Shown here piece by piece: positions 1 to 10,259 of a DNA stretch of 64,000 nt; positions within the stretch are counted from its first letter, which is position 1, and each line of letters starts with the position of its first letter. Below the pieces are notes generated by a model. The model saw nothing but the letters and a program-made list of their open reading frames with translations, had not been told where the DNA came from and did not search any database. The translations under genes were made by a program, and so were the position numbers. Source of the DNA: a virus; IMG/VR virus record IMGVR_UViG_3300027499_000007; one strand, 5' to 3'.

Positions 1-1
1 T

Positions 2-154
2 CAGGCTAGAGAAATGATTGAAGCCGCCAACATGGAACAATGCGAAAAGTTCGCAGGCGACTATGCTCGTACAATTATTAACACTCAGATGCAGGCACAG
101 TTTCATTGTGTGAGCGACGAAGAGTATAGACTAGCACAGGATCCTGAAGTATGA
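2..154 (+). CDS. partial hypothetical protein (5' truncated by window)
   Basis: Open frame from window start to TGA 152-154; C-term HCVSDEEY resembles next ORF. Confidence 0.7.
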   Translation, partial: QAREMIEAANMEQCEKFAGDYARTIINTQMQAQFHCVSDEEYRLAQDPEV

Positions 155-360
155 AGTATTGGTTAATTATTTTCTTTTTTACTCCCGATGGTGGGTTTGT
201 TGAGAAGAAGGAAGTTCGATACAAGAACGAATTCTCATGTTATTATGAGATGGCAAAAGAATTAGAAAAGAAACAAAAGCTAGTTCCTCATATGTATTGT
301 GTCACTGATGATCATTATCAGGGCAGAAAACAAGATTACGGTATACCGCTAGAAATCTAA
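151..360 (+). CDS. small hypothetical protein with hydrophobic N-terminus
   Basis: ATGA overlap with upstream ORF; YCVTDDHY motif. Confidence 0.7.
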   Translation: MKYWLIIFFFTPDGGFVEKKEVRYKNEFSCYYEMAKELEKKQKLVPHMYCVTDDHYQGRKQDYGIPLEI

Positions 361-363
361 AAC

Positions 364-439
364 GGACCTTTAGCTCAGTAGGTAGAGCAGTAGACTTTTA
401 ATCTATTGGTCCCGGGTTCGAGCCCCGGAGGGTCCACCA
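364..439 (+). tRNA. tRNA-Lys(UUU)
   Basis: Cloverleaf, loop CT-TTT-AA, GTTCGA T-loop, encoded CCA. Confidence 0.97.
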
Positions 440-471
440 AGTTTGTAATTGATATTTGAAGGAAGTGTAAA

Positions 472-774
472 ATGAAAAGTATTGTATTAAACAGTTGGAA
501 TTTCATCTTTGACTATAATAAGAGTCCATTGCGTAATATTCCAGAAGGTAATATCCGACATATGGTCTATCAAATCCTAGGATGGATGTGGGCTATTGCG
601 TTTAGTGTTGCAATTGGAAGTTATACATTTCTTGCAGTAAGTTTGATTGGCCATGCCGTTCTTATCGGCGCCGCGGCTATGACAGTAGCAGTATACACTA
701 CTGCAACCGTGAAACCGGAACTTTTTGTTAAGAAGGCAGGTTGGGGTCGTAGTGTCGACGGTGAGCATATTTAA
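472..774 (+). CDS. hypothetical membrane protein
   Basis: RBS gaagga; two hydrophobic segments. Confidence 0.7.
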   Translation: MKSIVLNSWNFIFDYNKSPLRNIPEGNIRHMVYQILGWMWAIAFSVAIGSYTFLAVSLIGHAVLIGAAAMTVAVYTTATVKPELFVKKAGWGRSVDGEHI

Positions 775-974
775 TGCTTATATTCATAATTGTTCTTACA
801 GCAATTGCGGCAGTACTTACATTGTTTGCATTGCTTAGGGGACTTGTTTCTTTTTCACAAAATCAAACAACTGACTCACGTAACAAGCAAACACAAATGA
901 TGTTTGCACGAGTAAAGTGGCAAGCAATTGCTGTGTTATTGGTAGTAGTTGCTGCCGCTGTTGTAGCTAATTAA
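774..974 (+). CDS. HIG1-like twin-transmembrane small protein
   Basis: Two TM helices joined by QMMFARVKWQA, like the alphaproteobacterial HIG1 family. Confidence 0.65.
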   Translation: MLIFIIVLTAIAAVLTLFALLRGLVSFSQNQTTDSRNKQTQMMFARVKWQAIAVLLVVVAAAVVAN

Positions 975-981
975 AGTTAAC

Positions 982-1057
982 GGACTGTTAACTCAGTTGG
1001 TAGAGTAGCTGACTCTTAATCAGTAAGTCGTAGGTTCGATCCCTACACAGTCCACCA
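982..1057 (+). tRNA. tRNA-Lys(CUU)
   Basis: Cloverleaf, loop CT-CTT-AA, CCA. Confidence 0.97.
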
Positions 1058-1063
1058 GTTTAT

Positions 1064-1115
1064 GGGCCGGCGGTCTAGAACCCGTTGAGCATCGAAAGAT
1101 GTAGTCGGTCCACCA
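1064..1115 (+). ncRNA. 52-nt tRNA-like mini-RNA with Ala-type acceptor (G3.U70, A73, CCA)
   Basis: GGGCCGGC/GTCGGTCC-ACCA stem, two internal hairpins, flanked by the GTTTAT spacer also used between real tRNAs. Confidence 0.7.
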
Positions 1116-1121
1116 GTTTAT

Positions 1122-1267
1122 GTTCCTCCGGTATGGAGCAACCAGCGAGCTCTCAGTGACTCTGCTAGGTGTGGCACAAGGATCTCTCTGGTCACTGTAA
1201 CAGGCTAATGACCTGCTCTGCAAACCTGTCCTTGGTGTACAGTGGTGCAAGTCCACAAGGAACGCCA
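1122..1267 (+). ncRNA. 146-nt tRNA-like RNA with acceptor, T-arm and large insertion
   Basis: GTTCCT/AGGAAC-GCCA acceptor; GTGG-TGCAAGT-CCAC T-arm; internal stems CAGTGAC/GTCACTG and ACAGG/CCTGT. Confidence 0.65.
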
Positions 1268-1279
1268 GTTACCTGGTTA

Positions 1280-1354
1280 GCTCTTGTAGCTCAATGGTAG
1301 AGCTGACCGCTCATAACGGTTAGGTTGGAGGTTCGAATCCTTCCGGGAGCACCA
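1280..1354 (+). tRNA. tRNA-CAU (elongator Met or Ile2, undetermined)
   Basis: Cloverleaf, loop CT-CAT-AA, CCA. Confidence 0.9.
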
Positions 1355-1375
1355 GGTTAGAAAGAGAGAAGAAGT

Positions 1376-1792
1376 ATGTTAGAATGTTTGATTTTAGGCG
1401 ACAGCATTGCAGTTGGTACTAAGATGTTTGCTCCAACGGAATGTGTGTCGTATTCCAAGGGAGGATTTAACTCTTGGCAGTGGAATCAGCGTTGGGGTAT
1501 GAATCCTGTTCAAGCCGATACTGTTGTTATTAGTTTGGGCACCAACGATCACGCAGGTGTTAACACTGAAAAAGAATTACGTAAGATGCGTATGAGAGTC
1601 AAAGCAAAGCGTGTAGTTTGGATTATGCCTCCTTGCAACAAAAGATTTTGTAAGCCTAAGGTAAATGCTATTGTAGAAAGACTCGCACGTGAATACAAAG
1701 ATATTATTGTAAGTACGCCATATGTACAGCCGGATCAGATTCATCCTAGCTGGCGCGGTTACAAGGATTTAGTTAGCAAAGCAAAAATTTAG
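1376..1792 (+). CDS. SGNH/GDSL hydrolase-like protein
   Basis: ILGDS, SLGTND and DQIHP blocks. Confidence 0.8.
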   Translation: MLECLILGDSIAVGTKMFAPTECVSYSKGGFNSWQWNQRWGMNPVQADTVVISLGTNDHAGVNTEKELRKMRMRVKAKRVVWIMPPCNKRFCKPKVNAIVERLAREYKDIIVSTPYVQPDQIHPSWRGYKDLVSKAKI

Positions 1793-1866
1793 CAACGTAG
1801 CTCAGTTGGTAGAGCAGCGGTCTCATACGCCGCCCGTCGGCAGTTCGAGTCTGCCCGTTGCTACCA
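1791..1866 (+). tRNA. tRNA-CAU (undetermined identity, A1-U72)
   Basis: Cloverleaf, loop CT-CAT-AC, CCA. Confidence 0.9.
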
Positions 1867-1872
1867 GTTTAT

Positions 1873-1949
1873 GGTGTCGGTAGCTCAGTTGGTAGAGCCC
1901 CGGTTTGTGGTACCGGTTGTCGCGGGTTCGAATCCCGTCCTTCACCCCA
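1873..1949 (+). tRNA. tRNA-His(GUG) with G-1:C73
   Basis: Loop TT-GTG-GT; extra 5' G opposite C73; CCA; two acceptor mismatches. Confidence 0.9.
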
Positions 1950-1950
1950 G

Positions 1951-2028
1951 CGGCCCTTAGCTCAGTTGGATTAGAGCACACGGCTACGAACCGTGAGGTC
2001 GGGAGTTCGAGTCTCTCAGGGCCGGCCA
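1951..2028 (+). tRNA. tRNA-Arg(ACG)
   Basis: Loop CT-ACG-AA, CCA. Confidence 0.95.
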
Positions 2029-2034
2029 GAATTT

Positions 2035-2110
2035 GCCAAGATAGCTCAGTTGGTAGAGCACGGGACTGAAAATCCCGGTGTCGCCGGTTCGATCCCGGCT
2101 CTTGGTACCA
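2035..2110 (+). tRNA. tRNA-Phe(GAA)
   Basis: Loop CT-GAA-AA, CCA. Confidence 0.97.
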
Positions 2111-2119
2111 TAAGTTTAT

Positions 2120-2193
2120 TGCCTCTTCGTCTAGTGGTAGGACACCGGATTTTGATTCCGGCAGCCGAGGTTCGAATCCTTGAGGGGCAGCCA
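2120..2193 (+). tRNA. tRNA-Gln(UUG)
   Basis: Loop TT-TTG-AT, U1-A72, G73, CCA. Confidence 0.96.
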
Positions 2194-2200
2194 AATTTAA

Positions 2201-2314
2201 AAGATAAGTAAAGAGTTAATAGATTTGTGTGATACATACGGTAAACGTAAGGCAGCAGAAATATTAGGTATAAGTTTAAGTGCTTGCAGAAGTAGGTATC
2301 ACAGATTAAAATAA
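2201..2314 (+). pseudogene. start-less helix-turn-helix remnant
   Basis: Frame reads KISKELIDLCDTYGKRKAAEILGISLSACRSRYHRLK*, bounded by TAA 2198-2200, with no start codon. Confidence 0.55.
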
Positions 2315-2315
2315 T

Positions 2316-2399
2316 GCGGACGTGGTGGAATGGTATACACGATGGTCTTAGAAGCCATTGCCGAAAGGCTTGAGAGTTCGAGTCTCTCCGTCCGCACCA
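2316..2399 (+). tRNA. tRNA-Leu(UAG)
   Basis: Loop CT-TAG-AA, long variable arm, CCA. Confidence 0.96.
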
Positions 2400-2432
2400 A
2401 ATTTAGTTAGTGTCCATGGGCACCAATACAAA

Positions 2433-2524
2433 GGAAGAGTGGCAGAGCCCGGTTTATTGCACCTGACTTGAAATCAGACGTACCTGTGAGGGTACCGTGA
2501 GTTCGAATCTCACCTCTTCCGCCA
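2433..2524 (+). tRNA. tRNA-Ser(UGA)
   Basis: Loop CT-TGA-AA, long variable arm, GCCA. Confidence 0.96.
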
Positions 2525-2529
2525 GATAG

Positions 2530-2558
2530 TTGACAAATAGATAAGTTGATTGTATAAT
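2530..2558 (+). promoter_or_regulatory. sigma70-type promoter
   Basis: TTGACA-17-TATAAT upstream of tRNA-Ser(GCU). Confidence 0.85.
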
Positions 2559-2568
2559 TAACTTATAC

Positions 2569-2660
<92 letters not shown>

Positions 2661-2676
2661 GTTTAGGAAACACCCC

Positions 2677-3114
2677 ATGAGTTACACATTGTTTTTAGAT
2701 GACGAGCGTTCACCTAGTCAAGTAACTTGGGCAGTGTTTCCACGTAACAACCTAAGTATCGTTCGCAATTACGATCAGTTTGTTACACATATTAAGCAAC
2801 ATGGCTTACCAGGTTTTGTGTGTTTCGATCATGATTTAGCTGATGAGCATTATGCGGCAATGCTAAAAGAGAATGAATCATCTGACAATAAATTTACGAT
2901 TTGGATGCCAGGTGATGATCTCTCAGATGGTCTAAACATTACATTTGATTATGGTAATGAAAAGACCGGATATGATTGTGCTAAATGGCTAATTGATTAC
3001 TGTGAAAATAATGGATACAAGTTTCCGCAGTTTGTAGTGCATAGCATGAATCCTGCAGGTAAAGTACGTATTGAGCAGTACATAGCTAATGCCCAAAAAC
3101 ATTTAAATATCTGA
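2677..3114 (+). CDS. cyclic-phosphate-processing receiver-domain (cREC-like) protein
   Basis: LFLDDER, FDHDL, TGYDCAKWL and VHSMNP motifs. Confidence 0.75.
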   Translation: MSYTLFLDDERSPSQVTWAVFPRNNLSIVRNYDQFVTHIKQHGLPGFVCFDHDLADEHYAAMLKENESSDNKFTIWMPGDDLSDGLNITFDYGNEKTGYDCAKWLIDYCENNGYKFPQFVVHSMNPAGKVRIEQYIANAQKHLNI

Positions 3115-3693: not shown

Positions 3694-4217
3694 ATGAAAT
3701 ATCACAAATACACTAATTTTATTACAGCTGAAGATTGTGATGAGCTTGCGTCTTGGATAGTTAAAAATCAAAACTCAAAATATTTCCTAGACGCATATCA
3801 TCCTGGTGCAATAAGAAAAACAACTCGTTTTAGTAATGATGTTGTTTATCCTAAAACCGCATACAGAGTTCAAGAAAATATTGACAATGTTGTAAAAGAT
3901 TTATTCAAGTTGGACACTGTAAAACGAGTTCAGTCTTTTCCTAATGGAATGTATGCATCAATTGGTACTCCTGGTGACTGTTGTGAGGAGCACGTGGATC
4001 CTAGATATCTAGCAAATCATTATACATATCATTTCAATGTTATACTTAGTGATTATGAAAATGCGGATCTTTTCGTTGATAGACATCTAGTAACATTATC
4101 AAAATTAGACGGAATATTATACCCGGTTAGTGAATTATTACATTATACAACTAAGTTAACAAATACTAATTCTAGACTTTTTTGGTGTTTTGGATATTGC
4201 ATTCCTATTAAAAATGC

Positions 4218-9607: not shown

Positions 9608-9781
9608 ATGAAGAAAACTTATCTAGTAGAAGACTTGTTTAGTGATATACAAGACGATCCTGATCACGTGCTATTAACTTTTCCACCTGAAGTTATCGAA
9701 AGCACAGGATGGAAACCAGGCGACACACTTAATATTGAAGTTAAAGACGGTTGCATATATATTAACAGGGTAGATGAATAA
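9608..9781 (+). CDS. AbrB/MazE/SpoVT-like small protein
   Basis: LTFPPEVIESTGWKPGDTLNIEV pattern. Confidence 0.6.
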   Translation: MKKTYLVEDLFSDIQDDPDHVLLTFPPEVIESTGWKPGDTLNIEVKDGCIYINRVDE

Positions 9782-9789
9782 ATAGTTTT

Positions 9790-9854
9790 ATCAGTTGTTG
9801 ACAGCTGACAATAAAAGCGGCAAGACCCCGGGGCAGTACCGGGCAGGTCCACCA
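9790..9854 (+). ncRNA. ssrA: tmRNA acceptor piece (permuted two-piece gene)
   Basis: T-arm CCCGG-GGCAGTA-CCGGG then CAGGTCC-ACCA; late promoter ATAAATA 9778-9784; 5' end approximate. Confidence 0.9.
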
Positions 9855-9867
9855 TAAGGAAATTGCT

Positions 9868-10068
9868 ATGACCCAAGACGAAGAGCGTTTGTATTGGAGA
9901 GGCTATCATTTTCCAGGTACGCTCTCCGACGAGGAGTTAGCGGAATGGCATAAGATAGTTGACAAGCACCACGGAAGAGATATTCCTAGCGAAAGCGAAC
10001 AGGAATATTGGGGTCGTGCGCTACTTGCATTTGCTATCGTGCTTGTGCTAGTAGCAGTTTTTTTATGA
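9868..10068 (+). CDS. 66-aa tail-anchored membrane protein inside the tmRNA intervening segment
   Basis: RBS AAGGA; C-terminal hydrophobic helix; fills the gap between the tmRNA pieces. Confidence 0.7.
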   Translation: MTQDEERLYWRGYHFPGTLSDEELAEWHKIVDKHHGRDIPSESEQEYWGRALLAFAIVLVLVAVFL

Positions 10069-10069
10069 T

Positions 10070-10230
10070 GGGCCTGACATAGGATCGATTGACGTGGAAT
10101 AGGAATGCCGAGACTGATTGACTGGCAAAGTGCCAAACAAAGTAACTGCAAACGATAACTTTGCATATGAGGAACTTGCCCTAGCGGCATGATTCTTCGG
10201 GGTAGGAAATACCTAGCAACAGAAAACACC
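10070..10230 (+). ncRNA. ssrA: tmRNA coding piece, tag ANDNFAYEELALAA
   Basis: 5' GGGCCTG pairs with CAGGTCC (G3.U70); tag frame 10148-10192 ends in TGA. Confidence 0.92.
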
Positions 10231-10259
10231 AATAGGAGCCTTCGGGCTCCTATTTTTTT
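10231..10259 (+). terminator. rho-independent terminator
   Basis: AATAGGAGCC-TTCG-GGCTCCTATT plus T run. Confidence 0.92.

Follow-up and report, generated by a model that had tools for sequence, protein, structure and literature searches.

A 146-nt tRNA-shaped element in the tRNA array of an uncultured freshwater phage, probably a gene for a non-decoding small RNA of the T4 species 1 kind

The tRNA array of an uncultured phage has an inter-tRNA gap of 222 nt between tRNA-Lys(CUU) and tRNA-Met, in which a 146-nt element on the plus strand (1122-1267) has the ends of a tRNA and a body that is different. The question raised by this locus is whether the element is a gene and, if so, for what kind of RNA. 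The window considered in the current analysis, that is, the whole stretch of DNA that was analysed, is 64 kb long and comes from an 80.6-kb IMG/VR contig estimated to represent 21% of a phage genome. The window sequence is present in subsurface and freshwater/lake metagenomes, and phages of Alphaproteobacteria are indicated by the similarity of its GOLLD RNA.

The first 10 kb of the window comprises 18 tRNA genes, the GOLLD RNA and a two-piece tmRNA (9754-10233), with small ORFs interspersed. All the free-standing tRNAs of the array (17/17) have an encoded CCA, as has the 146-nt element, and the GTTTAT spacer that precedes the element is also found 3' of tRNA-Lys (1058) and of tRNA-Met (1867). 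The ORFs among the tRNAs include an SGNH/GDSL hydrolase, an HNH endonuclease and a protein with a cREC_REC RNA-repair-type domain. The last of these, an ORF of 145 aa (2677-3114, plus strand), matches the cREC_REC 'cyclic-phosphate processing receiver' (PF20274, E = 6e-20), a family linked to RNA damage/repair systems, and its occurrence in the array suggests an involvement of the array in tRNA-damage conflict. Another ORF, of 66 aa (774-974, plus strand), is situated between tRNA-Lys(UUU) and tRNA-Lys(CUU) and matches the HIG_1_N family of small membrane proteins (E = 4.5e-6). A promoter that matches the sigma-70 consensus perfectly (TTGACA, 17 nt, TATAAT) is located on the plus strand at 2530-2558, just upstream of tRNA-Ser(GCU). 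It is the only promoter in positions 1-3000, where no plus-strand terminator-like site is found; neither kind of site occurs inside the cassette described below.

The element forms the 3' part of a 210-nt cassette (1058-1267, plus strand) that is present or absent en bloc between tRNA-Lys(CUU) and tRNA-Met and is made up of a spacer, a mini tRNA-like element of 52 nt (1064-1115, plus strand), a second spacer and the 146-nt element. The mini-element ends in the sequence with CCA (1113-1115) and is followed by the spacer GTTTAT (1116-1121), of which T1121 is the base at -1 of a predicted RNase P cut, and G1122 is the first base of the element, right after the spacer as the first-pass annotation had placed it. 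That annotation had also taken the element, as a tRNA mimic ending in CCA, for a second non-canonical member of the array. The current analysis agrees, the 52-nt mini-tRNA next to it being another such member.

All the features of the element lie on the plus strand. The 5' strand of the acceptor, GTTCCT (1122-1127), is the exact complement of 1258-1263 and has a pairing probability of about 0.48. It is followed by a variable D-like region (1128-1174), which includes 41 nt (1130-1170) in place of 7 nt in a short version of the element; this insert folds mostly into an imperfect hairpin around 1141-1170. An irregular long arm of 58 nt (1177-1234) with the basal stem CAAGGAT/GTCCTTG stands in place of the anticodon arm. 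At its tip the hairpin CAGG/CCTG (1201-1215) is the most stable local feature of the element (pairing probability 0.82) and carries a 7-nt anticodon-like loop, CTAATGA (1205-1211), which in the RNA has the pattern of anticodon loops, namely a pyrimidine, U, three bases, a purine and A. The T arm (1242-1256; pairing probability 0.35) consists of GTGG (1242-1245), TGCAAGT (1246-1252) and CCAC (1253-1256), and after it come the 3' strand of the acceptor, AGGAAC (1258-1263), the discriminator G1264 and the encoded CCA (1265-1267). A trailer of 12 nt (1268-1279) reaches the 5' end of tRNA-Met. The T arm, the 6-bp acceptor with GTTCCT, the G at position 73 and the encoded CCA are thus all in the sequence as the annotation had read them. 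The acceptor/T stack has 11 layers (6 base pairs, the unpaired A1257 and 4 base pairs) against 12 in a canonical tRNA, and position 55 of the T-loop is occupied by G instead of U. The unusual T-loop UGCAAGU is not disqualifying, since the identical 15-mer T arm is also found inside 12 phage tRNAs called by ARAGORN at default settings in unrelated IMG/VR contigs.

The tRNA-Lys(CUU) to tRNA-Met junction is common to five IMG/VR contigs. In three of the five (L119, L201, L202) the cassette is absent, and CCACCA is joined to GTTAC.TGG with nothing between. Contig L120 has a 112-nt version of the element only. This short version shares its first 8 nt and last 97 nt with the long one, the 7 nt ATAAAGG replacing the 41 nt, and its D-like hairpin is CCAY/GTGG with the loop AAAGG. 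An alignment of the two versions by MAFFT put the short 5' end within the long insertion; the alignment preferred here keeps the shared GTTCCTCC at the 5' terminus. In L120 an 8-nt tandem duplication, GAACGCCA GAACGCCA (3878-3895), 3' of the short version gives two alternative CCA ends, and it is found neither in the window nor in the lake contigs. About 18 public runs show the share of words expected for the short version, and contigs confirm it in 3 of them; runs with small word shares unconfirmed by contigs are left out of this count. Filled and empty forms of the site coexist in the lake runs X23 and X14, where contigs of the empty form join 1054 to 1265 and skip 210 nt. The mini tRNA-like element is missing in L120 and in those lake contigs in which the short version is found, and it and the 146-nt element are therefore separable modules.

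The short version has a minimum free energy (MFE) fold in the form of a four-way junction made up of the acceptor, the D-like hairpin, the 58-nt arm and the T arm, with GCCA free. The long version can adopt a tRNA-like fold with this long arm and T arm at an energy within 1.5 kcal/mol of its MFE. The 58-nt arm belongs to the MFE fold of both versions, and its basal stem has pairing probabilities of 0.3-0.54. In the predicted shared fold, which is cloverleaf-like, the acceptor is joined by a small hairpin in the D-like position, the irregular 58-nt arm and the T arm. As the long arm and the T arm are shared by the folds of both versions, the D-like position appears to be a variable slot and the long arm with the CUAAUGA loop a constant body. 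With z = +0.45 in the long version and z = +0.06 in the short one, the folding energies are no better than those of shuffled sequences.

Three stems proposed earlier do not fit this fold. The D-like hairpin CTCC (1126-1129)/GGAG (1135-1138) takes C1126 and T1127 from the acceptor strand, so that hairpin and acceptor cannot both form fully, and the short version does not have it. The complementary letters of CAGTGAC (1154-1160)/GTCACTG (1191-1197) and of ACAGG (1200-1204)/CCTGT (1225-1229) are indeed present, but as stems they have pairing probabilities of 0.012 and 0.017 respectively, and the first arm of the former sits in the 41-nt segment that is missing from the 112-nt version.

The 97-nt core (1171-1267) is identical in the window and L120 (97/97). 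Around it the identity falls to 77.7% in the adjacent SGNH gene, the pair of short spacers 3' of the element agree together in 31/33 positions, and the bona fide tRNAs on either side of that gene are 97-100% identical. Lake contigs from three metagenomes of three studies have no differences in the core, and the 58-nt arm is 100% identical in L120 and these contigs. The longest lake contig (1171-1328) has 4 differences in 61 flanking bases, the 12-nt trailer and tRNA-Met accounting for 2 each. The identity with L120 reaches into the 12-nt trailer, and a recent block exchange could hence explain part of the conservation.

An RNA library has provided two contigs, 1115-1174 with 7 differences and 1171-1306, which establish the existence of a diverged long version. 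They are weak evidence of transcription, as their depth is 2-3 and carry-over of DNA is possible. The variant has A1258G and A1262G, each opposite U in the acceptor so that a wobble pair is kept, and G1234A, by which the long arm loses its outermost pair. A further substitution distinguishes L120 (CC-ATAAAGG-GTGG) from the lake contigs (CC-ACAAAGG-GTGG), U.G of the D-like stem becoming C-G. Three of the four substitutions among the variants, namely the latter, A1258G and A1262G, thus preserve a pair; with four variable positions known, there is no true covariation.

Searches for further copies have been carried out with several parts of the cassette. A blastn search of INPHARED with the cassette gave no match, and scans of IMG/VR gave the contig of L120 alone with the 3' 20-mer of the element, no match with a 22-mer of the mini-tRNA, and with a gapped 5' pattern a single chance match in coding DNA (L207). 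Three chance matches in unrelated coding DNA were obtained with the apical 20-mer in JGI metagenomes. The covariance model R1, built from the short version, recovered the two known copies from 85 sources and five whole related records, along with weak matches on ordinary tRNAs only. No internal repeats of the element have been identified within the window.

The 15-mer of the T arm is encountered in two other settings. About 22 IMG/VR contigs (L012, L020, L044, L067, L068, L080 and about 16 more) have a conserved non-tRNA context around it, in which AGCCTAAGCG.AAAGCGCACAGC precedes the 15-mer and GCATAGGCT follows; many of these contigs are of about 16 kb and they come mostly from one sample. 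This context looks like a three-way-junction RNA motif. In another group of IMG/VR contigs (L026, L037, L048, L050, L053, L081 and L093) the 15-mer belongs to a leader, where it is preceded by GGGGAAGCC and followed by AGGAGG-ATG; this leader resembles a riboswitch of the cobalamin type in front of a phage gene.

Rfam searches at the gathering threshold and at E<=10, as the first-pass annotation had suggested, give no family on the element in the window or in the short version of L120. In the case of canonical tRNA (RF00005, gathering threshold 29 bits) there is no match at E<=10, and ARAGORN at default settings is silent on both the window and L120. The element resembles canonical tRNAs in its position in the array, in its spacer register, in the encoded CCA after G1264 and in a T-loop of the U54...A58 type. 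A canonical tRNA needs a 7-bp acceptor and a 5-bp T stem, where the element has 6 bp, the unpaired A1257 and 4 bp; it is without a standard D arm, and the 7-nt loop CUAAUGA at the tip of the 58-nt arm does not stand at the standard distance from the acceptor. The 94 distinct array tRNAs compared with it show only generic similarity in the T arm, tRNA-Asp and tRNA-Ile being the best. The tRNA-like domain of tmRNA is comparable in its acceptor stem, T arm, CCA and large non-tRNA body. The element has no tmRNA family in Rfam, no call by ARAGORN -m and, as had been noted from the letters, no tag frame; the small frames are in different phases in the two versions because of the 34-nt difference in length, and no frame is conserved.

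A resemblance arising by chance in spacer DNA would agree with energy z-scores near 0. The geometry of the element (a 6-bp acceptor, a gap of 0-1 nt, a 4-bp stem, a 7-nt T.C.A.. loop and N-CCA) was scanned on both strands of the 64-kb window and is matched twice, against a mean of 0.73 in dinucleotide shuffles (about 0.7 per 128 kb), so that about 0.001 matches are expected in the 222-nt gap. A scan with the canonical 7/5 geometry recovers the tRNAs of the array and not the element. Since the element is additionally in register with the GTTTAT spacer of the array and is conserved across phages and lakes, a chance origin is scarcely credible. When introns are allowed and the threshold is lowered to 80%, ARAGORN offers the reading of a tRNA gene with a short intron, whose splicing would leave a tRNA of about 71-89 nt. 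In the window it calls tRNA-Val(GAC), the intron being 57 nt long, and in L120 it calls tRNA-Arg(CCT), for which the intron has 41 nt. These calls differ in both anticodon and intron despite the identical shared 97 nt, and the same setting adds about 116 calls in the 64-kb window, for which reasons they are rejected as evidence. The D arm of such a tRNA would be abnormal. A tRNA of the group I type would have in its anticodon loop an intron with the group I core, usually over 200 nt in size; inserts of 41-57 nt are far below this size, and no group I or II family of Rfam matches, in line with the earlier remark that the element is far smaller than typical group I introns. Families of RtcB and of CCA-adding enzymes are absent from the 80-kb contig, which says little as the contig is a fragment of about 21% of the genome. 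Splicing of the element is unlikely, and we consider an intron-bearing tRNA quite improbable.

Foremost among the rivals is a tRNA-derived module, neutral or in decay, i.e. a former tRNA that has been remodelled and is excised for its tRNA-like ends without a function of its own. The cassette is dispensable, being missing from 3 of the 5 related contigs and both filled and empty in the same lake runs, and such polymorphism favours decay, as do the 34-nt length difference in the D region, the 8-nt tandem duplication in L120, the non-canonical minihelix, the want of an Rfam tRNA match and z-scores near 0. The strict conservation of the interior disfavours it: the core has 0/97 differences where the neighbouring gene differs at 22%, and again 0/97 in three lake studies in which the flanks vary, and no parent is recognisable among 94 distinct array tRNAs. 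We regard this rival as rather unlikely. A role only in cis or at the level of DNA, in which the tRNA-like ends punctuate processing or provide junctions where recombination shuffles cassettes and the released RNA is idle in trans, would account for cassette borders lying exactly at CCA/GTT junctions, for modules that vary among relatives and for an HNH endonuclease gene within the array. Both the neighbours are, however, tRNAs that need no added processing signal, and the conserved part includes the interior arm and not the ends alone, making such a role improbable.

To the observed anatomy, non-chance origin, conservation and cassette-like presence or absence of the element, the reading preferred here adds a processing, a stability and a function that we infer. 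On balance the element probably encodes a small RNA of the T4 species 1 kind, tRNA-shaped and non-decoding, which would be processed and functional. It would be co-transcribed with the tRNA array, since the cassette has neither promoter nor terminator inside it. Bacterial RNase P is known to accept as its substrate an acceptor/T minihelix with 3' RCCA, U at -1 and G at +1. In the element the minihelix of acceptor and T arm would serve for recognition together with the 3' GCCA, and a cut by RNase P between T1121 and G1122 would free the 5' end. Release of the next tRNA would leave the 12-nt trailer, which exonucleases may trim back to the encoded CCA. The mature RNA of 146 nt (112 nt in relatives) would then consist of the top half of a tRNA, a D-like hairpin tolerant of insertions and the conserved 58-nt arm, with an anticodon-like loop probably too far from the CCA end for decoding on the ribosome.

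The best guess at the role of such an RNA is that of a tRNA mimic that may occupy a tRNA-recognising protein, the candidate partners being a host defence nuclease that targets tRNAs or an enzyme of tRNA processing or tRNA charging. The stack of 11 layers with its unpaired A and the T-loop with G55 imply that recognition by tRNA enzymes may be poor. A more specific proposal, which we put forward as speculative and rather unlikely, is that the element defines a family of CCA-ended 'tRNA-handle' RNAs of freshwater jumbo phages, which would either decoy or sense those defence nucleases of the host that target tRNAs, or be carriers that can be charged. The strictly conserved long arm would offer its anticodon-like loop as bait and the slot in the D region would take extra modules. 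The cREC protein of the array and the several copies of tRNA-Lys and tRNA-Met would fit such a tRNA-damage conflict.

Non-decoding tRNA-shaped RNAs in phage tRNA clusters go back to the species 1 and 2 RNAs of T4. The current analysis adds a version from uncultured freshwater jumbo phages; with a function that is putative, it leaves the knowledge of this kind of RNA unchanged. The natural long, short and empty alleles are a ready-made deletion series, and the strictly conserved long arm suggests where a partner would bind. Genes like the 146-nt element escape tRNA finders and Rfam.

Among known non-decoding RNAs, the bacterial and phage YrlA Y RNAs are tRNA-mimicking partners of Ro60/Rsr, and that of M. 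smegmatis is cut by RNase P and has CCA added (PMC4201824). YrlA is comparable with the element in its tRNA-like T arm, D-like arm and acceptor-like stem (PMC4201824). YrlA has its ends within the stem that binds Ro, and an acceptor-like stem that is closed by a loop, whereas in the 146-nt element the ends constitute the acceptor. The element is not assigned to this class, as there is no CGAA in 1122-1267, the G-N-CGAA motif thus being missing, and no match to a Y RNA in Rfam. A gene for TROVE/Ro60, the usual neighbour of Y RNA genes, is absent from the 80-kb contig, which is weak evidence as the contig is about 21% of the genome.

The species 1 and 2 RNAs of T4 were reportedly sequenced in the 1970s. 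Stable RNAs that are tRNA-shaped but oversized have thus been known from phage tRNA clusters since then, and the novelty implied in the first-pass annotation does not hold. Species 1 RNA (rnaC, 139 nt, NC_000866 70908-71046) and species 2 RNA (rnaD, 119 nt) share with the element the location in a phage tRNA cluster on the strand of the tRNAs (PMC2330249), and all three are without an Rfam family. The T4 locus L206 (NC_000866 70908-71171) was also searched, and rnaC scores there only a sub-threshold tRNA-Sec-like match of 17.5 bits. Differences are seen in the T arm, which in rnaC is canonical with 5 bp and UUCGAAU and in the element is part of a 6+4 minihelix with G55 in the loop, in the annotated 3' end of rnaC, which is not CCA, and in the folding energy, rnaC folding far better than shuffled sequences (z = -4.6) and the 146-nt element not. 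There is no sequence similarity to T4, and model R1 has no match in the T4 locus; judged by sequence, rnaC is an analogue of the element and not a homologue. In rnaC, as in the element, the 5' and 3' ends pair beside a T arm, with a body of about 100 nt where a tRNA has its D and anticodon arms, which in rnaC consists of hairpins, and by this analogy of form T4 species 1 RNA is the closest known analogue of the 146-nt element.
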